DNA of 64,000 nucleotides from contig DISH01000006.1 in NCBI GenBank assembly GCA_002421665.1, positions 217,784 to 281,783 on the forward strand. The letters run 5' to 3'. Under the pieces are notes generated by a model, which worked only from the letters and a program-made list of their open reading frames with translations, was not told where the DNA came from and did not search any database. Positions 4,645 through 64,000 of the stretch are shown here, piece by piece; the stretch's first letter is position 1, and the number at the start of each line of letters is the position of its first letter. Both the position numbers and the translations under genes were made by a program. This stretch comes from Candidatus Omnitrophica bacterium UBA6215 (GTDB taxonomy: Bacteria > Omnitrophota > Gorgyraeia > Pluralincolimonadales > Pluralincolimonadaceae).

Positions 4645-4646
4645 AG

Positions 4647-18757: not shown

Positions 18758-21700
18758 TTTGACACGTAAGTTATATATGAATCAATACCCTTGGCTGTAT
18801 ACCTCATAAGGTACCGGTCAAGCTCGTTCATAAGGCTGACCATGTGGTAATAAGCCTGTATATTCTTTATTTTGTTGTTCAACAGGGTCTCTTTTATCTC
18901 CCTGATCCTTACGACGGACATGTCCCCGGTTGCTTCTTCAGCGCGCATGAGTTCGTTCATCCGTTCCTCGAGTACGGATACGTTCTTTTTAAAATTCTCG
19001 TAGTCCAAAACGGCCATCTTATAATCGGTGAAAATCCTTAAAGCATTCTGGAGTACCTCAGACATGTACGACTTCGACTTGAGGGCCGTTATCTTCTCCT
19101 GTAACGCTGCCACTCTCGCCTTGGTGGCCGTGGTAGGGTCGAATATCTTATCCATGGAATTAAGGGATATGAACTCCGAGAGAGAATTATAGCGGGAGAA
19201 TATGGCTTCATTCCTTGTTACTGATCCCATGAAGTCGGTAAGATAAGTATACTCGAGATTGAAAGTCAGGGACTTGATCTGCTTTGATATGGCCTCGGTA
19301 TCAAGCCTGGTCATCTTTATATTGTATTCGATCCGTTTCAGCAGGTCTTCGCGCAGCGGCACCTCCAGATCCTTCTTCGCCAGCCCAAGTTCTGCAGCAA
19401 GCCTTTCTTTTATATCACAGTCATCGGCCAACGTCACTCTCTTGGACAATTCGTCATAGACCTCGATATTCATTATGGAGAACCTGGGGTCAAGCCCTCC
19501 GACTACTATACCGAGATTGCTCCTGTAGCCCTCGCAATATTTACGGGCATCTATTGTTTTTTGCAGAAGGCTTTCTACGAATTCCTTTTGTTTGAGATAA
19601 TCGACATGGGCTACCGCTCCCGCCGTGTAAAGCTCCTCGACCCCTGCAAGAACCGCTTTCTGTTTCTCGCATTCATCGTTTACCTGCGAATATTCCGCGA
19701 GCGAAGCCAGGTAATCGCAATACGCATCCACCACTTTTACGCTGAGGTCGAACTTGGCCTGCTCGAGGTCTTTCCTGGCAAGTTCAACCCTCAATTCCTG
19801 TTTCTTTACCATAAGCTTGTTCACAAGATCCACTTCCGCGGAAACGACCGCCCCGGTCGTCTGGACGGTCTTTTTCTTCTGGGAACCCCTGTTATCCATC
19901 ACATAATAACCTTTGCTTACGTTGCCGTTGACCCTTATCATCTTATAATAGTTCAGGGACTCTTCCTCAAGTAAGAGGGCTTCCTCGTATTTTTTGACCT
20001 CGCGGCTGTTACGCAAAGCGATATCCAGGGCCTCCTGAAGACCCGACAGAAGTATCTTATCGCTTCCTTCCTGCCGGGCGTCTTTCTCCACAAAGAGGAT
20101 CTCCCTTGCGCTTGCGTAGTAATTATCGAACACTGACTCTTCATAGGTCAGCTGGGAGACAAGGTAATCAAGGCGGGCATCCGCCCATTGACGTTTTGTC
20201 CTTCCCCCGAACTTGTAAAGTTCATCCGTTATCTTGAACTGGTTCCCGGAATTCTCCATCTTGTTACGCAGATCATTGAGAAGGTCGTTCGAGGCGTCGT
20301 ATGCGGATTTTACGGCAAACTTCTCTTTCTCGTAAGAATCCATGCTCTTCGCGTACTCTATCTCCGATTTTATACGGTCCCTGGCGGCTTCAGACATCGC
20401 TATCTTCTCGGCATGGTCTCCCCAAGGTATAGAGACGCTGAAGGAAAGCTGCTTGTCCGGGTCTTCCCAGCCGTCATAATCTGAACCTTTGGTCTCATAC
20501 CTGACCTGCCATATTGCCCCTTCATAGGCCAAGGCCTTGGCCTCGCCCGCCCTCTTCCTCTCAACGGTATTGAGCGCCTGCTTTACGGAAGCCATGCCGT
20601 CATAATAAGGCTCTACCTTCTCTTTCAGCATCATCTTGAAATCGGACAACCCCTCTTCGCTTCCGAACAGGGCAGGTTCCTTGACCGTTATGGTCTCATT
20701 AAGCGGTATCCCCGTCCATCTCTTGAGATTATACTCGGCTACCGCCAGGGAAAATTCGACATTCGAGATCTCCTTGTCCACTTCAAGCCGCTGGAGGACA
20801 AGAGGAAGTATGTCAGAGTTGGTATACTTGGGGTTTTTCCCCTTCATATCCTCGAGCATATCGTTTATAAGGTCGTTTTTGAGTCGTTTTATCTCGTCAA
20901 GCTTTTTAAGGGTATTACCGAAACGCAGGACGAGGAGATAGTTCCTTATTACCTCATCGGCAACTACGCTCTGTAGGGCCCTGCCCCCGCATTCGGCCTC
21001 CTTGAGCCCTGCTCTGGCGGCTTTTACCGCCGCTCCGACCTTATTGTCGAGTATGCGGCCTTCCAGGGCAAGGAATGCCCTTGTATTCTTAGAAGGAGTC
21101 CCGTTTATGTTCACGTTCTCCAGGACCGCCGCTCCGTAAAGTTTCGGAAGATAACCGGCCTTCTCCGCGCCAATGCGCACCTTTTCTATTTTTATCCTCT
21201 TCTCTGCTATCTGCCTTGCCGTAAGAAGGTCCGCCCTCTCTCCCCTTGAGATCAGGTCCTCGAGCCCCATATCCTGGTAGGTCGGGCTGGTATTCTCCGG
21301 CTTGAGCTCTATCCCGTTGAGATTCGATAAAGTTACCGTATAATCGCTCAGGGCCTGCTGCAAAGCGTATTTGGCCTTGTATAGGTTATCGCTCATCCTT
21401 ATTATCTCGATGACCGGGAGCGAAAGCTTCTCTCTTAGCATCCTCAGGGTGTCTTCCGTCTTCGCTATGTACTCCCTATAGTTATCTATCTTATCCCTGA
21501 GGTCGGTTATTTTCGCGTTCCCTTTGAGGTCGTCGCACTCGAGGTCCTCCGAAGCCTTCAATACCTCAAGCCTGGCTATTTGAGATTCCAGGCTCTTCGT
21601 ATGGTTCAGGCCTTCGGAATGGCCGAAATCCGTAACGAATAACTCCAACTGGGTATCGGTTATTACCTTCCTTTCGAACCTTGTGCCTTTGCCTTCCGCC

Positions 21701-22602
21701 AGGCCGAGTATAGTCGTTGAGGTCAGTTTCAGGCGGGGATTATTGCCTATATGGGCCGCTACGGAAGCTTCCTCGCTCCTCTTCTTGATTATATCAAGCG
21801 TATAGCTTTTGGGTCTTATCTCCGCCTTTTCGGCGAAGACCGGGTCCCTGTTCACGTTACCGGGAAGCTCCTGGACAACTATATCAAGGTCATCGTTGTC
21901 CTCCAACCCCAGCAATCCCCTGAGATCCCGCCTTGTATTAATGAGGGTGTTCAGAGCCCCTATCTTCCTCTCGTTGACTATGCCCAGATAATTCTTCAAT
22001 TCGAGTTTTTCCGTCTCCGTATATTCAGGACTGTCTTTTATAATGCCTATTACCTTCTCGACGGTCTCGACGTTATCGCAACTCATGCGATAATTCTCCT
22101 GCGCCGCGGCAACCGCATAATAAACCGATATAAGTTTCCTTGTTTTCCATGTGACAGCCTGTTTGACCTCAAGCAGGCTTGCCTCATAGTTCTTCCTGTC
22201 TTTGGAGATATAATTAAGGCTGTCGGAAGTGATAGACATCTCTATCACCAATTGCTGTTCCGAGAAAAGGTCTGTCTGCTGGTCGAGGTCACTGAAGAGG
22301 TCGAACGGTTTTACCACGCTTCCCGCTACGCTGATCTTAGGAAGGAAGGTGTCCATCTTCCTTGCCTTTATCCCAAGCACGGCGGCATCGGAGGAAAGTT
22401 TGGCTATCTGGATATCCCTGTCAACTTCATAAAGCTTGTTAAGGGCTGACTCAAGCGAAAGATTACTGCAATCTATTCCTGCCTGTAATTCCTCAGCAGA
22501 ATAAGGTTCTTCCGCACCGCCCGGACAGGATACGAGCATTACCGATACTGTCAACGCGGTAAAAACTACTGCTATAATTTTGATCGATCTTCGGCTAAGC
22601 AT
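18754..22602 (-). CDS. Outer-membrane efflux protein (TolC/OprM/NodT family) lipoprotein, 1282 aa, about three OEP units long
   Basis: Lipobox LVSC in the signal peptide and an OEP-family N-terminal signature LSLESALNKLYEVDRDIQIAKLSSDAAVLGIKARKMDTFLPKISVAG. OEP-like half-repeat starts recur at about aa 245, 445, 640, 830 and 1030. Highly coiled-coil. SD AAAGGGG upstream. Confidence 0.75.
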   Translation of the reverse strand: MLSRRSIKIIAVVFTALTVSVMLVSCPGGAEEPYSAEELQAGIDCSNLSLESALNKLYEVDRDIQIAKLSSDAAVLGIKARKMDTFLPKISVAGSVVKPFDLFSDLDQQTDLFSEQQLVIEMSITSDSLNYISKDRKNYEASLLEVKQAVTWKTRKLISVYYAVAAAQENYRMSCDNVETVEKVIGIIKDSPEYTETEKLELKNYLGIVNERKIGALNTLINTRRDLRGLLGLEDNDDLDIVVQELPGNVNRDPVFAEKAEIRPKSYTLDIIKKRSEEASVAAHIGNNPRLKLTSTTILGLAEGKGTRFERKVITDTQLELFVTDFGHSEGLNHTKSLESQIARLEVLKASEDLECDDLKGNAKITDLRDKIDNYREYIAKTEDTLRMLREKLSLPVIEIIRMSDNLYKAKYALQQALSDYTVTLSNLNGIELKPENTSPTYQDMGLEDLISRGERADLLTARQIAEKRIKIEKVRIGAEKAGYLPKLYGAAVLENVNINGTPSKNTRAFLALEGRILDNKVGAAVKAARAGLKEAECGGRALQSVVADEVIRNYLLVLRFGNTLKKLDEIKRLKNDLINDMLEDMKGKNPKYTNSDILPLVLQRLEVDKEISNVEFSLAVAEYNLKRWTGIPLNETITVKEPALFGSEEGLSDFKMMLKEKVEPYYDGMASVKQALNTVERKRAGEAKALAYEGAIWQVRYETKGSDYDGWEDPDKQLSFSVSIPWGDHAEKIAMSEAARDRIKSEIEYAKSMDSYEKEKFAVKSAYDASNDLLNDLRNKMENSGNQFKITDELYKFGGRTKRQWADARLDYLVSQLTYEESVFDNYYASAREILFVEKDARQEGSDKILLSGLQEALDIALRNSREVKKYEEALLLEEESLNYYKMIRVNGNVSKGYYVMDNRGSQKKKTVQTTGAVVSAEVDLVNKLMVKKQELRVELARKDLEQAKFDLSVKVVDAYCDYLASLAEYSQVNDECEKQKAVLAGVEELYTAGAVAHVDYLKQKEFVESLLQKTIDARKYCEGYRSNLGIVVGGLDPRFSIMNIEVYDELSKRVTLADDCDIKERLAAELGLAKKDLEVPLREDLLKRIEYNIKMTRLDTEAISKQIKSLTFNLEYTYLTDFMGSVTRNEAIFSRYNSLSEFISLNSMDKIFDPTTATKARVAALQEKITALKSKSYMSEVLQNALRIFTDYKMAVLDYENFKKNVSVLEERMNELMRAEEATGDMSVVRIREIKETLLNNKIKNIQAYYHMVSLMNELDRYLMRYTAKGIDSYITYVSK

Positions 22603-51858: not shown

Positions 51859-54800
51859 TCAAAACTCCTTGAAATACAAGATATCCGTCTTCGGAAGATA
51901 TGTAACGGTAATGTCCTCCAAGACGGGGGTCTCAAGCGCCGGGGTCCCGGTCGTCGAGATCGCCGACTGCTGCAGGACAAAACCGTCCCAGTAATTATCC
52001 GTAGGTATCCACTTACCCCAAACACCTATCCCGGCGCGCACTTTCGTCGCGGATGTCGGGGCCGCAACCCAGCCCATATCCATAAATATATAATCACTAC
52101 CAACGTTAGTGCCCGATGAGACCGGCGTCGAACCTGAGTAAACAATGTTGCCTGCACTATCATAAAATTTCAGTTCAAGATCTCCGTGCCAACTGCCGCA
52201 GTCTGCGGACCATGAATACCATCCGCTGAATCTGTATTTGGCGCCTTTAACGCACGGCACCTCCTGATATATTTCGGTATCCAATTTACTGCTGTTGCTG
52301 CCGGAGCGCCTGCCGTGTCGCAGGCTATATGCTCCTTCATGCGGCTTGAGAGTGCTTGCAGTAGCGCCATTTGCCAATGCAACCGTCCAGTTGCTCAAAC
52401 TCCCGCTTTCGAAGCCGCCGTTCACTAAGACATTATCAACCTCTTGGACAGTTTCAGTCCCCGTAGCAATTAATTCCGCTTTAACCGCCAATTTGTCACT
52501 AACCGTATTTATAGCCCGCCCCGCGGAGGGATCGGTCCACTCCCCTGTCCATGAGGTCTTTGCACCTGTCGTATCCACGGATACCGTAATTCCGCCGCCT
52601 TCATCGGCTATTTCGTCCGGCACGGCTTGCGTCCATGTTATGGTCCCAAGCAGGACATTTTTCCCGAAGTCGATCTCCGGGGACTCATAACTACCGTTCA
52701 TGACATAAATACCGTTGTTCATATCCGCGACGATCTCGTAATCAGACCGTTGGGTATCCCACATCCAGACCGAACCTATCACCGAGTTGGAAAACTCGTA
52801 GCTGCCTTCACTTACATTCCACTTGCTGTATTCGTTTCCGCACATGAAATCATAATCTATATCGGATTTATCCTCGTAATCGGGATGATAATAATAAACG
52901 TTTATATCGTTAGATCCGTCCGAACCGCAATTATAAAAGAGCTTCAGTTCCCCGTTCAAATATACGTACATAGGGCATACGGAGGAATTGTACGTCCCCT
53001 CCGGGTTTCCTTCTATCGGAGAAGGATTAGTCCACGTAACCGCCAGATGATTCCACTTACCCGCATCCCAATGGCCCCAACTCCTGCTGCCATAAGGCCA
53101 TCCAAAGCCGGTATCCCCCCATTTGAACAACCCTTCGGAAAACCCCCATTTTGAAGTCGACGGGCTCCATCGCCCTCCTCCCCACTTAGCCTCAGCGTAA
53201 GTCCCCCCTCCGTCGGACCACATGAATAACGCCATAAATGGCATTCCGGCGGGATCGTCATAGCCGTCTATGGCGCTTCCGCTCGTAAGTCTTAGCATCT
53301 TCCTGTCCACATCGCTGTCCCCATACATCATGGAATCGATACTGTTCCATTGGGTCTTGAACCATATCTCAAGCGTCCCCTTACTGGCGGAAACATTCCC
53401 GGGGCATTTATATGCGGCGTTTACCTTATCGAACATGTCGGAAAGCATTCCGTCGGGCATAAGGTCCCCGCGGGTCAGGTAATCCGCAATACTTCCAATA
53501 TTTGGCTTTGTCCCGCTCCCGCTCGCCTTGACATCGGAAAGGGATTTATTGCCGCCCGCACTCTGGGCATCCAACGACTTCCTGTAATTAGCGTTGAACC
53601 AGGAGGTGCAGCTCGTCCCATCCGGGCCGCCAACGGTCTTCTTGGCGAGCATTATCTGTCCGTCGTATGCCGCCGCGGACGGACGCAGGTCCGTATCTTC
53701 CACCTCGACCGGCTCGGGATAAGTCGTGATATCCGTCTTGGAAGAGCCCGTCGCCTCAAACTGCTGCTGGCTCGTTAACCTGTACTGGTCAAATATCTTG
53801 GCAATACATATCACGTTCTTCTTCGCAACGGTTATCGGAGGTCTGCTTACCGTGCCCACAGAGGTTATCTCGTAGTAACCGCCGGAATTAAAACTGAACT
53901 CCGTAGTGTTGACACTAAAACCTCTGTCGTCCGAGTCCGCCGCACCGTTCTTGTTCCAATCCATGAGATATTTCCCGATATACCCCATCTTTGACGCCCA
54001 GCCGTAATTACGTATCCATGAAAACCCGGTATTCGGATTCGCGTTAGCCATAACCAAATCGGCGTCCCTGGAGCCTATCGAACTGCATCCTGCTATTGAC
54101 TCATAAAACTGCGGCCATCCTGAATAAGGCCTATGGTCTATTATATACTGGGCCAAAACATTCGCTTCATCAGCCGTTATCTCAAGAGTACCGGTCCCGG
54201 AACATGCATCGCATGCAACGGGCCCGATCAATGATGTCCCGGCCAGTGAACCGTCTCCCCCGCATTTCGGGCAGGCGTGTATCGCTTTTATCCCCCTGAG
54301 GACGGCCCTAAGGACTTCTTTTGAAGCGGTATTCACGTTGATCGGAGCCCTCGGCTGCAACGCATAAGGCGTAACCAAATCTGTAGGGTTTACCACGGAA
54401 GTATCGATAAAACCGTAGATGGTAAGGTAATCGGCGACCCCGGCGTACTTTTCCTCGATCTCGGCTTTTGTGGAACCGCTTATATATAACTTTATCTCTT
54501 CTTTCGCGGAATAAGGCGCATGCGAAGCTATGTTATCGCAATCGGCATCGGTAAGCAGCGCGGGACTTGAGGTAGCGCTCAAGTTCTTTAATATCTGGGC
54601 AAGGTTTGGATTGCCGTCATTAAGGTTTATCCGGCTGGCGCAATCTACCGCGGTAACGCTATATGAACCGGCAAGGCCCCTGTCGAAGGTAAACGTTCCG
54701 TCATACGATACTTCGGACGTATCAACGGCATCCGCAGTCGCCCCGTTGTCCCCCGTCCTCAATTCGGCTATCGCTTTCGCTATACCGGCATCCGCCATCA

Positions 54801-54942
54801 TCGACGCCTTTTTCGCGTAATAATAATTAAACGCCGATTTGAGACCTAATATAGAATTTATGGTAAAACTTACGCCAATAAAGGACATAAAGGTCAACGC
54901 GCCCAAGGCTATAAGTATAGCGACGCCTTTTCTTTTCCGCAT
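51859..54942 (-). CDS. Giant (1027 aa) PilX/GspK-like minor-pseudopilin protein with DnaJ-type zinc knuckle, LamG/ConA-like and CBM4/9-like modules (paralogue 1)
   Basis: N-terminus MRKRKGVAILIALGALTFMSF...AKAIAEL resembles PilX_N/GspK. GspK-like NLN (SYSVTAVDCASRINLND) and NVNTAS (INVNTASKEVLRAVL) motifs are present. Zinc knuckle CPKCGGDG...CDACSGTG. LamG-like GKWNHLAVTW...YVYLNGEL. CBM4/9-like VNGGFESGSLSNWT...YRFSGW. The C-terminus PVLEDITVTYLPKTDILYFKEF is shared with the paralogues. Confidence 0.75.
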   Translation of the reverse strand: MRKRKGVAILIALGALTFMSFIGVSFTINSILGLKSAFNYYYAKKASMMADAGIAKAIAELRTGDNGATADAVDTSEVSYDGTFTFDRGLAGSYSVTAVDCASRINLNDGNPNLAQILKNLSATSSPALLTDADCDNIASHAPYSAKEEIKLYISGSTKAEIEEKYAGVADYLTIYGFIDTSVVNPTDLVTPYALQPRAPINVNTASKEVLRAVLRGIKAIHACPKCGGDGSLAGTSLIGPVACDACSGTGTLEITADEANVLAQYIIDHRPYSGWPQFYESIAGCSSIGSRDADLVMANANPNTGFSWIRNYGWASKMGYIGKYLMDWNKNGAADSDDRGFSVNTTEFSFNSGGYYEITSVGTVSRPPITVAKKNVICIAKIFDQYRLTSQQQFEATGSSKTDITTYPEPVEVEDTDLRPSAAAYDGQIMLAKKTVGGPDGTSCTSWFNANYRKSLDAQSAGGNKSLSDVKASGSGTKPNIGSIADYLTRGDLMPDGMLSDMFDKVNAAYKCPGNVSASKGTLEIWFKTQWNSIDSMMYGDSDVDRKMLRLTSGSAIDGYDDPAGMPFMALFMWSDGGGTYAEAKWGGGRWSPSTSKWGFSEGLFKWGDTGFGWPYGSRSWGHWDAGKWNHLAVTWTNPSPIEGNPEGTYNSSVCPMYVYLNGELKLFYNCGSDGSNDINVYYYHPDYEDKSDIDYDFMCGNEYSKWNVSEGSYEFSNSVIGSVWMWDTQRSDYEIVADMNNGIYVMNGSYESPEIDFGKNVLLGTITWTQAVPDEIADEGGGITVSVDTTGAKTSWTGEWTDPSAGRAINTVSDKLAVKAELIATGTETVQEVDNVLVNGGFESGSLSNWTVALANGATASTLKPHEGAYSLRHGRRSGSNSSKLDTEIYQEVPCVKGAKYRFSGWYSWSADCGSWHGDLELKFYDSAGNIVYSGSTPVSSGTNVGSDYIFMDMGWVAAPTSATKVRAGIGVWGKWIPTDNYWDGFVLQQSAISTTGTPALETPVLEDITVTYLPKTDILYFKEF

Positions 54943-56010
54943 CTAATAACCTGTCCCTGTTGTTATCGAAGCTTCTTTTCTGATATAACTCGTCAATTCC
55001 TCAAATCCGTCCTCGTCGAGAAGCTTTTTCATTACCTCAGGATTTATCCTCGTATTCGGGTCGTTCTTCACCTTATTATAGACGGATGGATTTTTAAACT
55101 CAAGGTCGCAGTATTGCTGTAATTTTAAAAGTGAGTTAGCGGCAACTGTCACTGCATCTTCCGCACCCGGATGGAGAACATTTCTGGCATCGCTCTTCTT
55201 CTGCAACCCCCTTAAATAAAGCGCCCATGAGTTTGCCCATTTATTCCACTCTTTCGCGTTGAATTTCCTCTTCGAAGACTCATACATCCTGCATAGTTCC
55301 GAACGCGACGCCTCAAGCTTGGAGATCGAGGAACAAACCCTGCCCTTAAACTCCGCCTCCGTGCAGAGTATCTCCTTCATCCCGCCAGCATAAAGCAGGC
55401 AGCGCGACTCTGCCGTTCTTGCCTTGGTGCCTGAGGCAAAATTGGTCAACAACAGTTTTTTGATATCCTCTGTTTGTCTCTCCGGGGTAAAGATCGCCGT
55501 GACCGTATACACGGAAGGAAGCAGCCTTCTTTTTGAAAATTTGAAATCCATGAAGAACTTGTTTCCGAATACGCTTGTCCTGCCCGAAGCCATGACCACT
55601 CCGCGTCTTGCTATTAGAAGTTCTATAGAGGCGCCGTCGGGAAAAACGGCATCACCTTCAACGTCAACGATCACGGTATCTCCCTGACGGTCATAAAAAG
55701 CCCTTACCGACAGATCATAGGGCATGGCCTTGTCTTTATCTTCCTGGGGGTTAACCGGGGAGGGGGCCGATTCGGTCTTGGAGAAAAAATCTTCCGGCAG
55801 GGGCTTCTTTTCTATGGATCCTACATCACTCAAGCTGAATTTTACCTTACCTGCCTTCATCCTGAAGATCAGGCAGTTGCTATCCTCTTCCGTGATCTCG
55901 CCTTCAAACACTTTGCCGTTCTTAAGCCTGATCTCGTCCGCGAACGAACCCTGCAGGACAAAAAAAAGACTGGCGCAGATAACAATTATCCGGCCGGCCT
56001 TTGATAGCAT
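54943..56010 (-). CDS. Secreted hypothetical protein, paralogue family member 1 (355 aa)
   Basis: Sec signal peptide (cleavage near SFA/DE). N-terminal IRLKNGKVFEGEITEE beta-hairpin motif, a beta-sandwich-like middle and a W-rich helical C-terminus EWNKWANSWALYLRGL. Paralogous to the 343-aa and 403-aa genes. No gap from the upstream pilin-like gene. Confidence 0.7.
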   Translation of the reverse strand: MLSKAGRIIVICASLFFVLQGSFADEIRLKNGKVFEGEITEEDSNCLIFRMKAGKVKFSLSDVGSIEKKPLPEDFFSKTESAPSPVNPQEDKDKAMPYDLSVRAFYDRQGDTVIVDVEGDAVFPDGASIELLIARRGVVMASGRTSVFGNKFFMDFKFSKRRLLPSVYTVTAIFTPERQTEDIKKLLLTNFASGTKARTAESRCLLYAGGMKEILCTEAEFKGRVCSSISKLEASRSELCRMYESSKRKFNAKEWNKWANSWALYLRGLQKKSDARNVLHPGAEDAVTVAANSLLKLQQYCDLEFKNPSVYNKVKNDPNTRINPEVMKKLLDEDGFEELTSYIRKEASITTGTGY

Positions 56011-56013
56011 GTA

Positions 56014-59000
56014 TCAAAACTCTCTGGTGTAGAGCACCTGTGTCTTCGGCAGGTACGTAAAAGTCACGTCCTCGATAACAGGCGTATCAGTAAGAGGGAC
56101 AAGCGTCGTCGCTCCCTGCTCGATGAGCTTAAGGTCGTCAAAACTGGCGGGAATATACGCCCCGGAAGCCCAGCTGCATAGAGATATAGTGCAAAGGGTC
56201 GCGTCAGCGGGAGCCGTTACCCAGCTGCCGTTGGTAGGTATGCGCGTGTAAAGCCACGCGTCGCGAGTCCCCATGATAGATACTTCACCGCTGTTATAAC
56301 CGCCCGTCCCGTTGAACCACATCGTATAATAACAATTAATTGTTCCATACCCGCTCGGAAGGTAGGAATATCCTTCGAACTTGTATGCCTTTCCTCCGGT
56401 TATCGGCACGTCTATAGATACCCTGGCACTGCCGAAATTACCTGCGGACCAGGTCCCGCCGTGGACCGGACGGGCTTTAGTGCTAAGGAAAGTCCCCCAA
56501 CTCGGCGAGGCGCCCCAGCCTGAAGGAAGCGGGGCTTCGCTGCCGCCCAAGCCGGGATCATGCGTTTCAAAAGTCGGATCGGTGCAATCTTGCATGACAT
56601 CCGCGTCGGGCTGCGCAGCCGTACCCTTGGTCGAATTGAATACGCTTCTGAAGCGTATGGAACTGCTCCTTACGCGGTTATTGGAATTATTGACTATCGC
56701 CTCTCCTGATGATGAGCCGGTAGACTCCCAATCCCCGTAATAGGTCCCGGATATCGCCGGGTCAACAGCCATAGTTATCGTCTCTTCCGTACTCGGAGTT
56801 ATGGCGGTCCAGCTTGCCGTAGCCCACGTAACCGGGGTCCCGGTATCCGGAGAAGGCAGCGTTAATGTCGGAGATACATACGTCCCGGTCTTCCGGAACA
56901 GGCCGTTGCCGTATTCGGTCAGTATCTGGGCATTCGAAAGCTGCTGGTCCCATATCCTTACCGACGCCACAACCCCGTTCAACTGGCTGCGCTGGAAATG
57001 TGAAACCGTGCCGCTGCCCGCCCACCACTCGTTCCCAAGCATGAGGTATTGGGCGGAAGTGCTATCAAGATATTCCAAGTGGTGGAAATTCTGGTCCGTA
57101 CTCCTCTGTTTCCCGTCAAAATAGACTTTAAGGTCCTTCGGATAAATGCCCGGCCATGTAGACGTACTGTTAGCCGGATTACATTTGCCGTCATTAGCCG
57201 GTTCTTTCCAGCTGATCACATACTGGTGCCATTTACCGGAATTCCACGTACCCAAGGCCTCGGACCCTACATAGTTCCTGCAAAATTCTATGGCGTATTC
57301 GTTGCTTCCTTCTCCCTTGGAAGGATAATATTGCCAACTGGTACCGTTCCAGTACCCGTATCCCTGGGCGCCTATGGAACAGCCTTTCTGTGTCCCGCTG
57401 AAATTCTGCGAATAAAAAACATACGTGGAGAACGGCCATGTCTTGGTTCCGCTGCCGGTTATCTCGTCTTTGCTCATCAGTCGGTATATCTTGCGGTCCT
57501 TACAATCATCGTTATAAAGCATCGTATCGTTGCTGTTCCACATCGACTTGAACCATATCTCCATAGTACCGGCGCTGTAAGTGATATTATTGTTAGCCAG
57601 GTAGTCCGGGCAGACCACGTCATATGTATCGATAAGCATGCCGTCGGGCATCAATTCACCCCTTGAGCCCGCGGAAGCCACGCTGCCGATATTGGGCTTG
57701 GTCGCCAAAGTTCCGGAACCCGGGTTCGGCGGGTTTTGCAAAGCCGAGCTCCCCCCCGCGGCATTGGCATTCAACGAGGTGGTATAAGTAGCCCTGAAAA
57801 ATTTTCCGGAATTAGGCGTAGTACGGCTGACCCTGTCCATCATTATTTGCCCGTCATACGCCGCAGCTGTCACGCCTACCCCGGCAGGTTCCGGGTAAGT
57901 AGTCGTATTGGTTTTTACGTTCCCCGCCGAATCGAACTGCTGCTGATTGGCGGCTTTAACTATACCGAAAAGCCTGGCTGTCTCAGATATACCTCGCTGG
58001 GCGAGCAACACACCCGCAACCGTCCTGTAAGTACCGGTGGACCTTATCTCGTAATAGCCGCCCGAGTTAAAACTGAATTCCGTCGTGCTCTTCCTGAGCC
58101 CTTTATCGGTCGCCTCAACGGTCCCGTTCTTGTCGATATCTATCATATACTTACCCACATAACCCAGTCGCAATGCCCACGCATCATTACGGGCCCACGA
58201 AAAACCCGTATTGGGGTTAGCGTTAGCCATCACCACTTCCTGGTCGGACGAATATGTCCCGTTATTAAAGAACGCCTTTATCGAAGAATAGAAAGACTCC
58301 CAGCTTATATAGGGCCTGTGCGCCACTATGTAATTGGCCAGGTCCTGGGCTTCGGTCGAGTTTATTATCAGGTTACCCGTAATATTTGAAGGAGAGCCCC
58401 CTCCGTCGCAATACGGACAATCCAGGTGGGTACCTAACACGTCAAAATAATAACCGTCCCCTCCGCATTTCGGGCATGAATGGTCGGCCTCTATATTCAT
58501 CAGCAGGGCTCGAAGGACCTCAGCCGAAGCCGTATTGACGTTCACCGGGGAACGCGGCTGCAGCGCGTATGGAGTAGTTATATCCTGCGGATCGATCGTC
58601 GTAGGATCGACATAGCCGTATATTGTTATATAATCGGCTATCTTCGCGTACTTCGCTTCCGATATTCCCGCTTTTACCTTGATCTCTTCTTTCGTGGTAT
58701 AAGGCCTGTTGGCGGCTATGTTGTCGCACTCGGCGGTTGTCAGGCCCGCTGAGACAACGGTATTGAGGTTTTGCAATATCTGGGAAAGGCGCGCGTTGCT
58801 GTTGCTGTCGCTGAGGTTTATGCGGCTGGCACAGTCGATAACCGTAACGCTGTAACTGCCGCGGTTGCCAAGAAGGGAATTATCGGAAAACCCGCTTGAA
58901 AAAGCCGTTTCCGCAAGACTGTCTATGGCGTCATTAAAGGCGCCCTGATTGCCGTACCTGAGTTCGGCTATGGCCTTAGCTACACCGGCTTCCGCAAGCA

Positions 59001-59139
59001 TCCTGGCTTTGACATTAGCATTAAAATTATGCGCCGCTTTCTGCTCCATTATAACCGAAAGCACCATGGTCGAGCCTATAAGCGAGAGCATGGCCAGAAC
59101 ACCAAGAGCGAAGACTATAGCGAGTCCTTTTCTCATCAT
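56014..59139 (-). CDS. Giant (1041 aa) PilX/GspK-like minor-pseudopilin protein with zinc knuckle, LamG-like and CBM-like modules (paralogue 2)
   Basis: The N-terminal ~430 aa are co-linear with paralogue 1 (AKAIAELRYG, SYSVTVIDCASRINLSD, VNVNTASAEVLRALL, CPKCGGDG...CPYCDGGG, ANANPNTGFSW, TEFSFNSGGYYEI). LamG-like GKWHQYVISW...LKVYFDGKQ. C-terminus PVIEDVTFTYLPKTQVLYTREF. Confidence 0.75.
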   Translation of the reverse strand: MMRKGLAIVFALGVLAMLSLIGSTMVLSVIMEQKAAHNFNANVKARMLAEAGVAKAIAELRYGNQGAFNDAIDSLAETAFSSGFSDNSLLGNRGSYSVTVIDCASRINLSDSNSNARLSQILQNLNTVVSAGLTTAECDNIAANRPYTTKEEIKVKAGISEAKYAKIADYITIYGYVDPTTIDPQDITTPYALQPRSPVNVNTASAEVLRALLMNIEADHSCPKCGGDGYYFDVLGTHLDCPYCDGGGSPSNITGNLIINSTEAQDLANYIVAHRPYISWESFYSSIKAFFNNGTYSSDQEVVMANANPNTGFSWARNDAWALRLGYVGKYMIDIDKNGTVEATDKGLRKSTTEFSFNSGGYYEIRSTGTYRTVAGVLLAQRGISETARLFGIVKAANQQQFDSAGNVKTNTTTYPEPAGVGVTAAAYDGQIMMDRVSRTTPNSGKFFRATYTTSLNANAAGGSSALQNPPNPGSGTLATKPNIGSVASAGSRGELMPDGMLIDTYDVVCPDYLANNNITYSAGTMEIWFKSMWNSNDTMLYNDDCKDRKIYRLMSKDEITGSGTKTWPFSTYVFYSQNFSGTQKGCSIGAQGYGYWNGTSWQYYPSKGEGSNEYAIEFCRNYVGSEALGTWNSGKWHQYVISWKEPANDGKCNPANSTSTWPGIYPKDLKVYFDGKQRSTDQNFHHLEYLDSTSAQYLMLGNEWWAGSGTVSHFQRSQLNGVVASVRIWDQQLSNAQILTEYGNGLFRKTGTYVSPTLTLPSPDTGTPVTWATASWTAITPSTEETITMAVDPAISGTYYGDWESTGSSSGEAIVNNSNNRVRSSSIRFRSVFNSTKGTAAQPDADVMQDCTDPTFETHDPGLGGSEAPLPSGWGASPSWGTFLSTKARPVHGGTWSAGNFGSARVSIDVPITGGKAYKFEGYSYLPSGYGTINCYYTMWFNGTGGYNSGEVSIMGTRDAWLYTRIPTNGSWVTAPADATLCTISLCSWASGAYIPASFDDLKLIEQGATTLVPLTDTPVIEDVTFTYLPKTQVLYTREF

Positions 59140-60350
59140 CAGTTTATCTCCCTGGGGGCGGATGACAGCTCGGAATTCATGATGCCCACCAGTTTCTGCA
59201 ACTCCATCTCCAAAGCGTAACGTTTCTTCTCCATATCGGCTTTCTTTGCGGCACCTGCCTCGGAAGACCGGGTCTTAAGGCTATCGGTCATTATAACATA
59301 TATATCGGAAAGATACTTTACCGCAATAGGCAGGCCCTTCTCGCACTCCGGATACAGGGCCGCCGCGTCTTTCCTTCCGTTCTTTAGGCTGTTACTCAAC
59401 TTTTTAAGGCGGAAACGCCACCTATCGGACCATTCATCCCACGTCACGGCGTTAAAATCGTTAAGGGACAAAGCATAGACATCTTTGAGTTCTTTATATA
59501 ATTCTTCTACGGAAGACACCTCGAGCGCAGTGTCGCTCTTCTCGTTCTTTTCGTTCTTCGCGGCTTCGGAAGCCCTTCCTATAACTACGTCGGCACTCGA
59601 AGCCGTGTAAGGTATCTTACCGTTTAAAGCTGCCTTCTTGAACTCCGGCCTCTGCATGTCAGGGATGAACACTGCTTCCACTTTATATTTGCCCGCGGCC
59701 AATTCCGTCCCGAAAGGTCCGAACGATATACTGAAGGAGTTACCCATAACGACCGACTCCCCCATGGTGATCACATTATCTATGCGTTTCAAGAATATCT
59801 TCAGGACGGCCCAATCAGGCAGCCCCGTCTTGCCGTCTACATGCAGTATTATCTTGTTCCCGTATTGTTCGATGGAATTCGATATCTCTATCCCGTAAGG
59901 GGATATCTCTGCCTCTTCTTCCCCGGCATCAAGAGGAATAGAGGCCTCCACGCCTTTTAATTGTCCGCCGGGACCTCCTGTTTTCATAGAACTGATCACG
60001 CTATCAACCTGTTTCTCTGGAAAGAACAGTACCTGCACTTCATATTTCCCGGACAGCGGTTTATCTAAAGGCCCGAGCGTAACATAATATTTGCCGGGAG
60101 AGACTTTTATGTCTTTAAAAGCGACCGGACTGCCGTTCTTCTTAACAAAAACCGATACTACGGCATCCCTCGGAAGAGTAGTCTCCCCTGAAACACTTAC
60201 TTTCGGGCCTTCCTTGGTCCTCAGGTAAAGCGCCTTATCAATGGTTATCTCGAATACAGTGTCACCGTCCGCCGCGGGGGCCAAAAAACAAAAAAAGCCG
60301 GCAACAAGTATAATTATATTAACGGCTTTTGGAAGTAACTCTCTTTTCAC
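59139..60350 (-). CDS. Secreted hypothetical protein, paralogue family member 2 (403 aa, two beta-sandwich-like repeats)
   Basis: GTG start with SD GGGAGGG at N7. Signal peptide (APAA/DG). Two repeats of a ...GKYxVxxxFxPxxQ module. W-rich C-terminal motif TWDEWSDRWRFRLKKL. 1-nt overlap with the downstream giant gene. Confidence 0.7.
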   Translation of the reverse strand: MKRELLPKAVNIIILVAGFFCFLAPAADGDTVFEITIDKALYLRTKEGPKVSVSGETTLPRDAVVSVFVKKNGSPVAFKDIKVSPGKYYVTLGPLDKPLSGKYEVQVLFFPEKQVDSVISSMKTGGPGGQLKGVEASIPLDAGEEEAEISPYGIEISNSIEQYGNKIILHVDGKTGLPDWAVLKIFLKRIDNVITMGESVVMGNSFSISFGPFGTELAAGKYKVEAVFIPDMQRPEFKKAALNGKIPYTASSADVVIGRASEAAKNEKNEKSDTALEVSSVEELYKELKDVYALSLNDFNAVTWDEWSDRWRFRLKKLSNSLKNGRKDAAALYPECEKGLPIAVKYLSDIYVIMTDSLKTRSSEAGAAKKADMEKKRYALEMELQKLVGIMNSELSSAPREIN

Positions 60351-60406: not shown

Positions 60407-61438
60407 TTATTGCCTGTTCTTCAAGTCGGCGGCTACAGCGGAAACATCCTGCTTTGTCTCTTCCAGCGCCTGTTCAAACGACCTCTTAAGAAGCGCGACG
60501 TCCTGCACAGGGAACCCCGTTTTCGCAGGTTTTGAATCCAGGGAGTTCAGCTTGATCGTATATGCCCTTAAAAGCAACGGCAGCTGGTTAAAACAGAACC
60601 GGATCCTCCTCTGGGACAGGGCATGGGTAGACACAACATAGGCCTTGGCTTCTTCTTCAAATTTCTGCCTGGCGGCACTGACCTTAGAGAACCACCTCCC
60701 CGACCAGTCTTCCCATTTCTGCGCGCTATACGAGGACCTGCTCTTCTCATATTCCGCATTAAGCTCTTTGTAAAGGGCTTCCGCCCCTGAAGCCGTCCGG
60801 TTGAGGTATTCCCTGGTCTTAGTCTCGTCGGTTTCCGCGCGTTCCCGGCTGCCTATCATCAATTCGTAAGGCTTCGAATATAACCTGTTATTGGTGCCGG
60901 TCATCGCCTCCGCCTGAACGGTATACACTCCTGATATCATGCGATTTTCGAACGGACCGAATACCACGTAGAACTCCCCTCTCTTTACGCGGGATTCTTT
61001 CATGTTTATTACCCCTCCCGCCTGCATGAAATATACCCTCAAAGGTGTGTTGTTGGCAAGTTCGCTCGTTCCGCTGACGTATATCTTGCCTCTCTTGTAT
61101 TCCGCCTTCACTTTTATGCTCGCGGAAAATACCTGCGGGGCTTCTTCCGTTTTCGGTTCCGGCTCGGGTTCGGTATTTATCTCGGGGAGCGCCGCGGTCG
61201 AATATCCCTCGGCCGGCTCCCTGGCTTCGAAAGAGCTTACATCCTTCCTGGCTATCCTCATCTTGCCTGAGCCCAATTTGATCTCGATATAATCTATTGT
61301 CTTATCGGTTATCTTCCCCTCTATAGTCCTCCCGTTCCGCAGGAAGATTATATCGGCACGTGACGAAGCCGCCATAAATAACCATATTAGCGAGATCGAT
61401 ATTATCTTAGCCGGCCTTATCATTGTCCTTCTCTCCAA
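60407..61438 (-). CDS. Secreted hypothetical protein, paralogue family member 3 (343 aa)
   Basis: Signal peptide (SSRA/D). IIFLRNGRTIEGKITDK N-terminal motif as in the 355-aa paralogue, and a W-rich KWEDWSGRWFSKV motif. The start may be the internal MIRPAK (top about 61423), which overlaps the upstream stop in ATGA fashion. Confidence 0.7.
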   Translation of the reverse strand: MERRTMIRPAKIISISLIWLFMAASSRADIIFLRNGRTIEGKITDKTIDYIEIKLGSGKMRIARKDVSSFEAREPAEGYSTAALPEINTEPEPEPKTEEAPQVFSASIKVKAEYKRGKIYVSGTSELANNTPLRVYFMQAGGVINMKESRVKRGEFYVVFGPFENRMISGVYTVQAEAMTGTNNRLYSKPYELMIGSRERAETDETKTREYLNRTASGAEALYKELNAEYEKSRSSYSAQKWEDWSGRWFSKVSAARQKFEEEAKAYVVSTHALSQRRIRFCFNQLPLLLRAYTIKLNSLDSKPAKTGFPVQDVALLKRSFEQALEETKQDVSAVAADLKNRQ

Positions 61439-64000
61439 TACTCAACCTCAACCTTAGGCAGGAAAGTTACGGTTATATCCTCAAGAACGGGAGTCCTGGA
61501 ACTCGCTGAATACTGGTCCCTGCTTATACTCGACGATGAAAGTACCGCCTTATACTGAATAAAGGGATCCGTCCCTGAAAGCTGCGCCCCATTGGTAAGC
61601 GATGACCCCCACGATGTATCCCCGGTAGGCAGACCTGAAGCGGTAGACGCTATCCTGGCATACATAGTGACGTTTGTGCTGGACATGGGTTGGGTCTGGG
61701 GGGACCACGAAACGGTTCCCCATATTACCGATGAGCCCGCGCAGAACGGCGTCGACACTAAATAACCGTTCTCGGGTATTCCCCGGATATCATCCCAATG
61801 CGTCTGCAGGACTGTTACCGCGCCGGCCTTATCAAAATCCGCCGGCCCTATGGTACACTGTCCCCTGTTGAAATCCGACCAGTCCCAACCGAGGTATTGG
61901 TTATTGGCTATATATTTGAAGATCTGGGTATTAGCCCCAAGCGTGCCCGGCGACCAGGTAGACAGGGCTCCTGAAGTACCGTTTACGAAGGACCTGTACG
62001 ATACGCTCGTCCCGGAATTCGCGCCGGCCATCCCGATGGTCTTCTCCGGCAGGTAATTGAACTGAGTATAGAACATCTTTGTATACATCCTTATCTCGTT
62101 GGTATCGCCGAAACAATAAAGAGGTTTGGGCTCAGTGGTAACGTTGGTATTGCCATGGCTGTCGTTGAGCAGGCATTTGTAGCCTCTTGCCGTCATCGTT
62201 TGCCCGCCGTATCCGGTAGGCCATGTATCATCCTGCACGCCCTTGGCGAATATCCAGCATCCGCAGAACGGCGCTTCAGGCTGCCAGTAAGTATAGCTTC
62301 CAGGAGAAGGTATCGTCTCAAGTTCCCAACTTGCCGGCCGCGTCGGGTTGTATATGTAAGTCGGGTTTCCGCTCGCGTCATAAACCGGATACACCTCCGG
62401 CTCCCCGTAACGGCCCTCAAGGCTCCCGTCAAAGACACCGTTACCGTTCTGGTCATAATAATAGACATACCTGCTGCTGCCTGAATACAGGCGCGTCGTG
62501 GGAGGCGGGAAAGACAGCGGATATACCGTTCCGTTGCCGCGCCATGCTATCCTGGTAGAAGGCGCGGGTTCTTTTACGTATGCCCTTACAAAAACGGAAT
62601 TCGTGTTAGGTCTGAAATAGTTCCTGTTGACCTCGAAATGTTTGCTTTCAAAAGTGTTGACCTCTATATATACCTCCCTGTCGCCGTCAGTATCATTATC
62701 CTGGAAATCCTGGTAACTAACGTTAAATTCGCTAGTCCCCCACCACGACCTGTTCGCGACATAACCTTTCATCATGACGGCCGAGAACGCCGGATCCTCG
62801 TCAAAATTATCCCAATACCCGAGCTTAAGAGAATCCGGAGTTGTCGCGTAACCCGGGACCTCCCATTGCATCTTGCCCGCCCCGGAATTCCAACTGTCTT
62901 CTACAGTAGGACACTCGTCAAGCCAATTAACATTGAAGACCTCCCCGTCCTGGAAGTTGCCGTATCTGCCGAACCAGGCGGCATAAAACTCTTCTTTGGT
63001 GGTCTGCGTCCACGTACCGAATACCTTGACGACCGCGGAAAGCTGTTTTACGGAAGCCGTCTGCGTGCCATTAAGCTCCCTGGCGGTAACGCCTATCGTA
63101 TAGATCCCCGCGTGGTTATATCCGCTCGTAAGTTCTGTCCTCGGGTCATACCCGAGCCTCTCAGCAGGTATAGGCGCGGCCGAAGCGAAGGAGGCCGATT
63201 TCCACTTCAACTGCACCGAATTATGGAACAATTGGTCATAGTATTCCAGGCGTATCCTGTGCCAACCGGGATTCGCGAATGTATAAGTCCCCGACGCGGT
63301 CCTGTCCCACGGATAATTTTCCGAACTTTGCTTATCCGTCCAACGGGAACAGACTAAAGTATCATTTATATAGAACCTTGCACCGTCATCGCAGGCTATC
63401 CAGAAGGTTATCGGAGTATTGACCTCGGAATCCGTTATCTCTATATAACCGGTCCAGATGACCCCGAATGTGGTAAGCCCGTAATCGCCTACCGTGGCGA
63501 TGGTCCCTCCTCCGGCAAATTCAGCGTCATGCGTCTCCGCCCAAGTATCGCCTCCGTCACCGTCGGTCCCGGGCATTACCGCGTCATCAGGAGTCTGGTA
63601 TATCTGTCCGATCTCCACTATCTTTTCGCAAAAACTTGACTTGTCAATAGCTACGTTAGGAGTTGAACCTGTCAGGTTGCTGTAATACTTGCCCAGGAGG
63701 CCGCCCCTGATTATAGGCTTATTCACCGTCAATTTGTTCTTATTAGCTTCGAAAACCGCCTGGGTAATACCGGTTGCCATCCTGATCTCGGAAATGGCGT
63801 CAAAAGGCGCGTTCTTGCATTGCGCGGACCCCTCGATATTACCGGAAACGCCTCCTACTGCGGTATTGACCGCGTCGGAGTCCCTGTAGTCTATTATGTT
63901 GGCGATCTGCTGGTTAGAAAGGAAGGTTTGGAGTATAGTTATCTGGCTTGAGTCGGTTTCATCAAAGGTATTTATATTTACCTTATCCTCCTCTGAGGAT
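61420..64000 (-). CDS. Giant PilX/GspK-like minor-pseudopilin protein with PA14 domain (paralogue 3; 5'-partial, N-terminus beyond window end)
   Basis: The reading frame stays open from the track's M at 63780 to the window edge. In that upstream part it encodes a GspK-like ANIIDYRDSD motif. It contains a PA14-like segment (GTYTFANPGWHRIRLEYYDQLFHNSVQLKWKS) and ends with PVLEDITVTFLPKVEVEYWREGQ, like paralogues 1 and 2. Confidence 0.7.
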   Translation of the reverse strand, partial: SSEEDKVNINTFDETDSSQITILQTFLSNQQIANIIDYRDSDAVNTAVGGVSGNIEGSAQCKNAPFDAISEIRMATGITQAVFEANKNKLTVNKPIIRGGLLGKYYSNLTGSTPNVAIDKSSFCEKIVEIGQIYQTPDDAVMPGTDGDGGDTWAETHDAEFAGGGTIATVGDYGLTTFGVIWTGYIEITDSEVNTPITFWIACDDGARFYINDTLVCSRWTDKQSSENYPWDRTASGTYTFANPGWHRIRLEYYDQLFHNSVQLKWKSASFASAAPIPAERLGYDPRTELTSGYNHAGIYTIGVTARELNGTQTASVKQLSAVVKVFGTWTQTTKEEFYAAWFGRYGNFQDGEVFNVNWLDECPTVEDSWNSGAGKMQWEVPGYATTPDSLKLGYWDNFDEDPAFSAVMMKGYVANRSWWGTSEFNVSYQDFQDNDTDGDREVYIEVNTFESKHFEVNRNYFRPNTNSVFVRAYVKEPAPSTRIAWRGNGTVYPLSFPPPTTRLYSGSSRYVYYYDQNGNGVFDGSLEGRYGEPEVYPVYDASGNPTYIYNPTRPASWELETIPSPGSYTYWQPEAPFCGCWIFAKGVQDDTWPTGYGGQTMTARGYKCLLNDSHGNTNVTTEPKPLYCFGDTNEIRMYTKMFYTQFNYLPEKTIGMAGANSGTSVSYRSFVNGTSGALSTWSPGTLGANTQIFKYIANNQYLGWDWSDFNRGQCTIGPADFDKAGAVTVLQTHWDDIRGIPENGYLVSTPFCAGSSVIWGTVSWSPQTQPMSSTNVTMYARIASTASGLPTGDTSWGSSLTNGAQLSGTDPFIQYKAVLSSSSISRDQYSASSRTPVLEDITVTFLPKVEVEYWREGQ

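Follow-up and report, generated by a model that had tools for sequence, protein, structure and literature searches.

Three giant pilin-like proteins, here K1, K2 and K3, are encoded on the minus strand of a 64,000-nucleotide stretch of the Candidatus Omnitrophica bacterium UBA6215 genome (contig DISH01000006.1, positions 217,784 to 281,783; hereafter the window), and they share an ending of about 23-24 residues that is characteristic of a family of giant, sugar-binding proteins of pilus tips not described before. Two layers can be distinguished in this ending. Its first half, TPVLEDVTITY(L), is very probably the final core strand of a jelly-roll domain shared with secreted proteins that are not pilins, as sequence profiles and structure models both suggest, and its second half is a family-specific tail, predicted from the same kinds of data to be a terminal strand with a putative function. 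The whole ending may be read as the C-terminal beta-hairpin of a jelly-roll 'cap', i.e. the closing strand plus a tail that acts as an intramolecular clasp, a composite reading to which we give an even chance. The three genes and their endings are located as follows:

K3 gene, 51859-54942, minus strand: 1027 aa, ending in TPVLEDITVTYLPKTDILYFKEF, with the stop codon at 51859-51861.
K3 C-terminal motif TPVLEDITVTYLPKTDILYFKEF, 51862..51930, minus strand: aa 1005-1027, placed by translation, regular-expression scan and AlphaFold2 strands.
K2 gene, 56014..59139, minus strand: 1041 aa, a colinear paralogue of K3, ending in TPVIEDVTFTYLPKTQVLYTREF.
K2 C-terminal motif TPVIEDVTFTYLPKTQVLYTREF, 56017..56085, minus strand: aa 1019-1041, placed by translation and regular-expression scan.
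K1 gene, 61420..>64000, minus strand: a PA14-bearing paralogue with its N-terminus past the window end, ending in TPVLEDITVTFLPKVEVEYWREGQ.
K1 C-terminal motif TPVLEDITVTFLPKVEVEYWREGQ, 61423..61494, minus strand: placed by translation and regular-expression scan.

The shared ending is a real and statistically solid observation. Translation of the open reading frames (ORFs) gives TPV[LI]ED[IV]T[VF]T[YF]LPK..[VI].Y.[KR]E at the end of all three proteins, in agreement with the preliminary description of this stretch, and a regular-expression scan of all six frames of the 64 kb found the motif at just these three sites, 20-23 residues ahead of the stop. The endings of K1, K2 and K3 share 16, 15 and 14 of 23 residues in pairwise comparison. 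The codons for 10, 10 and 9 of these shared residues differ synonymously, and over the 23 codons the nucleotide sequences are 58-65% identical. Such diverged synonymous codons under kept residues argue that the peptide is maintained at the protein level by purifying selection. In BLASTP, K1 matched K2 and K3 significantly in two segments only: the ending, with 54-64% identity at E 1e-5 to 1e-6, and the N-terminal pilin part of ~190 residues, with 27-29% identity. K2 and K3 have the same architecture, align colinearly and are ~40% identical. The earlier statement that the preceding modules differ is thus correct for K1 with its PA14 module, but not for K2 and K3. Likewise, the third protein had been given its right ending, but the window end cuts the protein, which is found at full length on longer public contigs (964 aa by ORF reading of locus L001, 949-963 aa in the contigs' gene calls).

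The ending is widespread among related proteins and nearly confined to two phyla. A variant of the motif is recognisable at the end of 61 out of 64 K3 homologues (722 to 1765 aa), and close homologues are annotated as Candidatus Omnitrophota. When a profile built on 49 positions of the ending was run exhaustively over 1.84 billion cluster representatives, 264 of them matched at E<=1e-3, and in all but one of the best 150 of these 264 proteins the match lies at the extreme C-terminus. Nearly all complete proteins among the matches listed begin with a basic and hydrophobic GspK/PilX-type N-terminus, the helix-hairpin-helix (HhH) motif [VIL]N[VIL]N[TS]A is usual in complete motif-bearing sequences, and the proteins range from ~670 to 2200 aa with a variable middle. 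The motif search proposed in the preliminary description led to GspK/PilX-type giant proteins, which bears out that the ending belongs to pilin-like proteins. Across 183 distinct endings the consensus is [DE]-T-P-V-[LF]-[DE]-D-[VI]-[TS]-[IV]-T-Y-[LFM]-x4-[IV]-L-[YS]-[WY]-[RK]-E, and the protein almost always ends 21-29 residues after the Thr. A degenerate DNA pattern for [DE]TPV[LF][DE]D[VI][TSI][IV], searched in one genome per species across 185,579 species, gave 80 matching stretches and 42 confirmed loci, 41 of them in metagenome-assembled genomes (MAGs) labelled Omnitrophota or Planctomycetota/Planctomycetia and the remaining one in an 'Actinomycetota' MAG. Some genomes carry several copies (up to four), and no Verrucomicrobiota-labelled record among these genomes had the C-terminal pattern. 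Profile searches found no Pfam, NCBIfam or PDB-sequence relative of the C-terminal domain; neither Pfam nor NCBIfam holds a model for the K family, its signature ending or its partners, and literature searches found no description of them. A word-index homology search with the last 50 residues or the non-pilin domain returned almost only short fragments.

The three K proteins are GspK-fold minor tip pseudopilins with grafted lectin modules (PA14, LamG-like and carbohydrate-binding module, CBM). K3 illustrates the architecture upstream of the ending:

K3 GspK-like pilin module, 53773..54942, minus strand: aa 1-390, with the N-terminus RKG/VAILIAL, an HhH alpha-domain, a zinc-ribbon insert and a beta-hairpin, followed by IFDQYRLTSQ.
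K3 LamG / concanavalin-A-like lectin region, 52717..53625, minus strand: aa ~440-742, with approximate boundaries.
K3 jelly-roll domain, N-terminal five strands, 52438..52710, minus strand: aa ~745-835, the penultimate strand KLAVKAELIATG being the last of them; AlphaFold2 strands 749-825.
K3 carbohydrate-binding module, 51943..52437, minus strand: aa ~836-1000, nested between the penultimate and the closing jelly-roll strands.

A fold search assigned the GspK fold, i.e. a pilin sheet with an inserted HhH alpha-domain, to the N-terminal module of the K proteins, and hhalign of the N-terminal 400 residues against Escherichia coli K-12 GspK gave a probability of 90.7%; it is on these two results that we read them as GspK-fold minor tip pseudopilins. 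The N-termini are of the pilin type, with MRKRKG/VAILIALGALTFMSFIG in K3, MMRKG/LAIVFALGVLAML in K2 and RDRRG/IALLMAIGILGLL in K1 (the slash is the cleavage site, placed by analogy), and they show the GspK combination of a basic leader, Gly at -1, a hydrophobic alpha1N and no Glu at +5. Each chain joins this pilin module to at least one further functional domain, as modular pilins do. The N-terminal profile had only weak ComEA (HhH) and XcpX matches among PDB sequences, and the K proteins score below the curated GspK cutoffs (27.5-35.8 against 130 bits for NF037980 T2SS_GspK, 17-21 against 24.2 for PF03934 T2SSK). Gene order points to the same class of proteins. The longer public contigs show the operon gspH-I-J-K1-p-p-K2-p-K3, where p is a secreted partner gene, followed by EF-G, YebC and RuvCAB. 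In L001 the gspH-gspI-gspJ-gspK order is present, with a GspH-like protein (3171-3626, 151 aa, GFTLIE prepilin motif), a GspI/PilV-like protein (3623-3994, 123 aa) and a GspJ-like protein (3954-4667, 237 aa) encoded directly before K1.

Some further features of the pilin module and its operon deserve mention. The GspK-like alpha-domain contains a double CxxCxGxG zinc ribbon of the DnaJ/anti-TRAP-like type (K3 54190-54273, aa 224-251; K2 58396-58476, aa 222-248), which has weak matches to the Pfam families Anti-TRAP and DnaJ_CXXCXGXG, recurs in many family members and is unusual for an exported pseudopilin. Behind the pilin hairpin follows IFDQYRLTSQ (K3 aa 383-392, window 53767-53796; family consensus KIFDIWRQTTQ), a segment similar to the strand QIYRRTLQLY at the C-terminus of E. 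coli GspK, and the lectin part of the K proteins seems to be appended exactly at the GspK end point. The ~3 kb before the pseudopilin operon (L001 1-3170, outside the window) contain no called gene and only short, doubtful ORFs.

The first half of the motif is where a domain fold accounts for the conservation:

K3 motif first half TPVLEDITVTYL, 51895..51930, minus strand: closing strand of the C-terminal jelly roll, delimited by hhalign against non-pilin repeats.

In short family members the C-terminal domain comprises ~110 residues and follows the pattern G.[FY].S...WGTI.WT...I.F.V......W......I.Y[RK]A.F......DTPVLDDVTITY. Two exceptions in the motif search, both non-pilin proteins, proved informative: P0142, which has a Sec signal peptide and DUF2341, HYDIN-like immunoglobulin (Ig) and dockerin domains, and the LamG-like P0147. 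Each holds two internal domain copies that end in RYIQYRVELSTS..ETPVLNDVTINY or RWIQYEATLSTS..TPILSDVTITY. The pilin-family C-terminal domain aligned with these four repeats at a probability of 99% (hhalign, E 3.6e-18, 87 columns), and the alignment stops exactly at TPVLxDVTITY(L). The jelly roll of K3, once its CBM had been deleted, matched the same repeats with the same end strand (E 1.4e-4), and further non-pilin fragments end in RYIQYR..TPxLxDVTIxY without a tail. The jelly-roll domain of P0142 and P0147 has no Pfam match. Jelly rolls ending in RYIQYR...TP[VI]L.D[VI]TI.Y were seen in non-pilin secreted proteins of unrelated sources (P0142, P0147, P0204-P0216).

Structure models place this strand in the same position. 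In the AlphaFold2 model of K3 the order is jelly-roll strands (749-825), CBM (853-993) and closing strand (1007-1016), and the K3 sequence from which residues 831-999 were removed matches the short-type domain from end to end (probability 99.6%, E 7e-24); the isolated K1 domain is modelled as a jelly roll in which the strand LEDITVTFL lies within a block with a mean predicted local distance difference test score (pLDDT) of 91. From sequence alignment and models, a CBM of ~165 residues thus appears to be nested in the last jelly-roll loop of K2 and K3, just before the closing strand. This nesting explains why the strand appears 'kept across swapped lectin modules', and with the CBM in K2 and K3 and PA14 in K1 the ending is indeed kept whichever lectin modules precede it. 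Its strand-like character is likewise supported by the two AlphaFold2 strands of K3 (1007-1016 and 1020-1026, pLDDT 90-94). The preliminary description had also considered that the motif might simply be the last strand of a fold found in non-pilin proteins and lack a partner. This is true of the first 11-12 residues, but not of the last ~11, and a partner exists.

These last residues form the second layer of the ending:

K3 tail PKTDILYFKEF, 51862..51894, minus strand: pattern x4-[IV]L[YS][WY][RK]E plus 0-5 residues, with statistics on the 183 unique endings.

The tail (~11 residues) has no counterpart in the non-pilin jelly-roll homologues examined, i.e. the repeats aligned by hhalign and the further fragments. 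In the full-length AlphaFold2 model of K3 it is a strand (1020-1026 of 1027, pLDDT 91-94), whereas the model of the isolated K1 domain shows no strand there and a lower confidence (~79), a difference that suggests packing outside the jelly roll. Positions I16 and L17 both reach nearly 3 bits in the 183 endings, so both faces of the strand appear to be constrained.

Together with the purifying selection indicated by the codon comparison, these data lead us to prefer, among single readings of the tail, an intramolecular clasp. The N-terminal GspK-fold module would anchor the protein at the tip of a type IV filament or of a pseudopilus like that of the type II secretion system (T2SS), the LamG, PA14 and CBM modules that follow it would present glycan-binding surfaces, and a jelly-roll 'cap' would close every family member. 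The tail would then be neither cleaved nor used for sorting; it might fold back on the same protein, either on the LamG/jelly-roll interface or on the pilin module, and clasp the adhesin head.

Several points weigh against such a clasp. The strand comparison spans two paralogues, the full-length K3 with ILYFKE and the isolated K1 domain with VEVEYWRE, where a Glu occupies the position of the conserved Leu, and both models were read as strand assignments and pLDDT values only. Covariation by mutual information is weak and ambiguous: the LamG strand 'TLYVD' lies at 0.81 standard deviations and the pilin strand at 0.6, and similarly weak signals that tie the tail to the pilin strand 'KTITAVV' and to 'IWRQ' conflict with the LamG block. 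Moreover, P0147 combines a LamG-like domain with the jelly roll and has no tail, which means that this domain pair needs no clasp. Finally, the tail has been seen only together with a GspK-like module, and its genes are coupled to a partner gene in 33 of 40 loci, both of which fit an intermolecular role equally well.

The tail might instead be a plug-in strand that inserts, in trans or in cis, into the GspI/J/K tip sheet or into a partner, so that interchangeable giant lectin adhesins would cap one machine. Taken in this broad form we regard the idea as possible but on the doubtful side, and it has two more specific versions. The first follows a recent preprint, according to which the last ~10 residues of PilC/PilY1/MshQ complement the pilin sheet of a PilK/GspK-type protein in trans, while GspK itself and the ~600-residue CpaL supply this strand in cis, CpaL after a dispensable middle of ~470 residues (Ellison et al. 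2026 preprint, PMC12918778). By analogy, the tail of the K proteins could be such a 'C-beta' licensing strand that completes the GspK-type pilin sheet of its own chain, lies against GspJ, and licenses and locks the tip complex. In gross layout the K proteins match CpaL, with a GspK-fold N-terminus, a variable middle and a conserved strand at the extreme C-terminus, and the last ~6-12 residues of K3 do provide a short terminal strand (1020-1026, pLDDT above 90). The tail accompanies GspK-like modules only and never the non-pilin jelly-roll homologues, is a strand in the full-length model only, bears in its [IV]L[YS][WY][RK]E core a loose likeness to QIYRRTL, the last strand of E. coli GspK, and has the weak covariation hints towards KTITAVV and IWRQ. 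However, a closer match to the GspK strand, compared by eye, stands right after the pilin hairpin (K3 383-392 IFDQYRLTSQ, consensus KIFDIWRQTTQ, strand 385-389), and this look-alike suggests that the site of the GspK terminal strand is probably already filled in cis. With the tail only 3-4 residues away from the jelly-roll core strand, and the best-coupled block of an overall weak covariation located in the LamG region, we consider a licensing strand unlikely.

The second version concerns the secreted partners, three of which are encoded in the window:

Partner gene between K2 and K3, 54943-56010, minus strand: 355 aa, with signal peptide.
Partner paralogue, 59139-60350, minus strand: 403 aa, with signal peptide; its stop codon and the K2 start have 1 nt in common.
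Partner paralogue directly after K1, 60407-61438, minus strand: 338-343 aa, with signal peptide.

Among the 42 confirmed loci, 40 have a readable downstream ORF, and in 33 of these a signal-peptide gene follows the motif-bearing gene directly, at a spacing of -14 to +110 nt (mostly 3-6 nt). The partner belongs to a family of 281-411 aa in 23 Omnitrophota-type loci, the same family as the three partners in the window, and to an unrelated secreted family of 145-180 aa in 10 Planctomycetota-type loci; in three further loci the motif-bearing gene is an orthologue of K3 with EF-G behind it, the arrangement also present in the window. The tail could accordingly be imagined as a beta-augmentation or donor strand for this co-encoded protein, be it a chaperone or a second tip subunit of a two-protein adhesin. 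The coupling itself, the correspondence of partner family and tail type, the three K genes with three partners in the window operon, and the conservation of L17 and W19, which by alternation lie on one strand face, would all agree with this. On the other hand, the tail is also present in K3 and its orthologues, next to which no partner gene lies, the match of tail type and partner family may reflect phylogeny alone, and in the monomer model the tail already has a high-confidence position. The partners also carry no chaperone or incomplete-Ig signature recognisable in Pfam and NCBIfam scans; no Pfam model covers their families, and NCBIfam matches were weak and N-terminal, including a weak Leptospira-type N-terminal domain in two window partners. 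A strand donated to the partner therefore seems rather improbable to us. The reverse arrangement, in which the C-termini of the partners would serve as a universal donated strand, was rejected, as the ends of the Omnitrophota partners are helical in appearance and not conserved.

Two observations on the partner position may be added. Most of the small Planctomycetota-type partners end in a conserved basic-Gly-Gly motif, ...[RK]R[RK]GG[IL] (L005, L009, L033-L049), that looks like a terminal signal or strand. In L017 (JABMSB010000028.1) the motif gene is followed not by a partner but by a PilM-like ORF starting with MFWNRPRKYIGIDISESG, which would tie at least one family member to the assembly genes of type IVa pili.

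A sorting or anchoring role, which the preliminary description had put forward, is unlikely, and a C-terminal signal of the LPXTG, CTERM, type IX secretion system C-terminal domain (T9SS-CTD) or outer-membrane protein (OMP) beta-signal type, whether for sorting, anchoring or processing, appears highly improbable. The extreme C-terminal position, the strong conservation and the 'LPKT' string of the window copies invite such an interpretation, but the protein stops 0-5 residues past [RK]E with neither a transmembrane stretch nor a basic tail, one half of the motif is predicted to be a buried core strand, export is already given by the pilin-type N-terminus, and the K proteins match no CTERM or T9SS model. 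LPKT was rejected as a sortase motif, since positions 12-15 are variable across the 183 endings and neither a Gly nor a transmembrane stretch or basic tail follows, and the OMP beta-signal since the last residue varies (F, E, I, V, Q, R and others) and a terminal Phe is not conserved. The dedicated processing enzyme that had been suggested did not turn up either: the Pfam-annotated genes in the flanks of the loci read include no sortase, exosortase, rhombosortase or peptidase. That the similarity is a by-product of recent duplication, gene conversion or chance has next to no probability, for although the three paralogues lie within one operon, the low nucleotide identity and the different codons for 9-10 of 14-16 shared residues, the same ending in 183 distinct sequences from two phyla, and the genome distribution rule it out.

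The genomic surroundings bear on what the K proteins do. Prepilin-type ORFs occur in the fetched flanks of just 7 of the 42 loci, which fits a filament machine encoded elsewhere, and no secretin, ATPase or platform genes were found in the scanned window stretches 9.4-30.3 kb and 33.2-46.7 kb. The K proteins fit interchangeable glycan-binding tip adhesins for such a machine. In three other Omnitrophota loci (L006, L007, L008) the K-plus-partner cassette stands beside genes of glycoside hydrolase (GH) families GH94 and GH9, CBM30/CBM11 genes and GntR/LacI-type regulators; a glycan-gene neighbourhood was hence present in 3 of the 5 related loci whose annotated neighbourhoods were read, all three being Omnitrophota-type. 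The GH94 genes are cellobiose-phosphorylase-like, and the neighbourhood as a whole hints that the tip adhesins serve cellulose or glycan capture. Elsewhere in the window, a 3121-aa protein (9392-18757, minus strand) with glucan-synthase/glycosyltransferase family 2 (GT2) and GH76-like regions overlaps by its stop/start with a 1282-aa protein (18754-22602, minus strand) that has TolC-like outer-membrane efflux protein (OEP) repeats, and the two may form a giant pair for making and exporting polysaccharide.

Omnitrophota are uncultured, mostly ultra-small bacteria that presumably rely on attaching to other cells or to surfaces, and to our knowledge the adhesins of their type IV pili have not been identified. 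Nearly the whole phylum has such pili (Seymour et al. 2023, PMC10066038). The ending offers a simple and specific sequence tag for giant lectin-bearing tip pseudopilins and their coupled partner genes, and it illustrates that a conserved terminal motif can be two-layered, with an ordinary domain-closing strand and a short family-specific tail. What the tail would teach beyond this depends on its role. If it is a clasp only, it is a useful family signature and little more; if it is a complementing strand, it would provide an independent, deep-branching test of the C-terminal strand licensing of type IV filament tips. A plug-in strand would extend the rule of C-terminal strand complementation to uncultured Omnitrophota and Planctomycetota, with the adhesins as stand-alone K-plus-partner cassettes.

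The K proteins share parts of their organisation with several known systems. The secreted LamG/DUF2341/dockerin proteins of the P0142 and P0147 type have a homologous jelly roll with the same closing strand, often after a LamG-like domain, but they carry Sec signal peptides and no pilin module, their domain is internal or repeated, and the x4-ILYWRE tail is absent. The Verru_Chthon cassette A-D (TIGR02600, TIGR02598, TIGR02599, TIGR02596) resembles the locus in its three prepilin-type proteins and one large (~1300 aa) GspK-like protein; K2 and the H, I and J proteins have weak N-terminal matches to its models, although these scores are far under the cutoffs and confined to the N-terminal ~60 residues. 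Modular type IV pilins are known from Streptococcus sanguinis, where PilC carries a lectin module and PilB a von Willebrand factor A (vWA) module (Raynaud et al. 2021, PMC8179133). What sets the K proteins apart from these is a GspK-type pilin module, several lectin modules in a chained or nested arrangement, a conserved, family-specific cap and tail at the end, and a coupled partner gene.

Like the K family, the C-beta systems CpaL/TadG and PilC/PilY1/MshQ have a large tip protein whose very C-terminus forms a short conserved strand, and in CpaL, too, this strand is far from the N-terminal pilin-like domain of the same chain. Pfam and NCBIfam scans of the K proteins gave no PilY1 or CpaL homology, no direct comparison having been made, and a contact of the tail with the pilin module would follow by analogy only. 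In contrast to these systems, the K family seems to keep the proximal terminal strand of GspK, and its tail comes directly after a jelly-roll core strand. Another close system is the T2SS minor tip pseudopilin GspK/XcpX (PDB 3CI0, 5VTM), which shares the basic N-terminus, Gly at -1, hydrophobic helix and missing Glu5, the HhH alpha-domain inserted in the pilin sheet, the gspH-I-J-K order at this locus and a similar terminal strand motif past the hairpin (IFDQYRLTSQ in K3, QIYRRTL in GspK). Compared with GspK, however, the K proteins have 2-7 times the length, since lectin modules, jelly-roll cap and tail add ~300-1900 residues; their hidden Markov model scores fall far under the cutoffs; and many members have the zinc-ribbon insert with CxxCxGxG twice. 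They also occur as several paralogues per genome, most of them outside H-I-J operons, and with a secreted partner coupled downstream.

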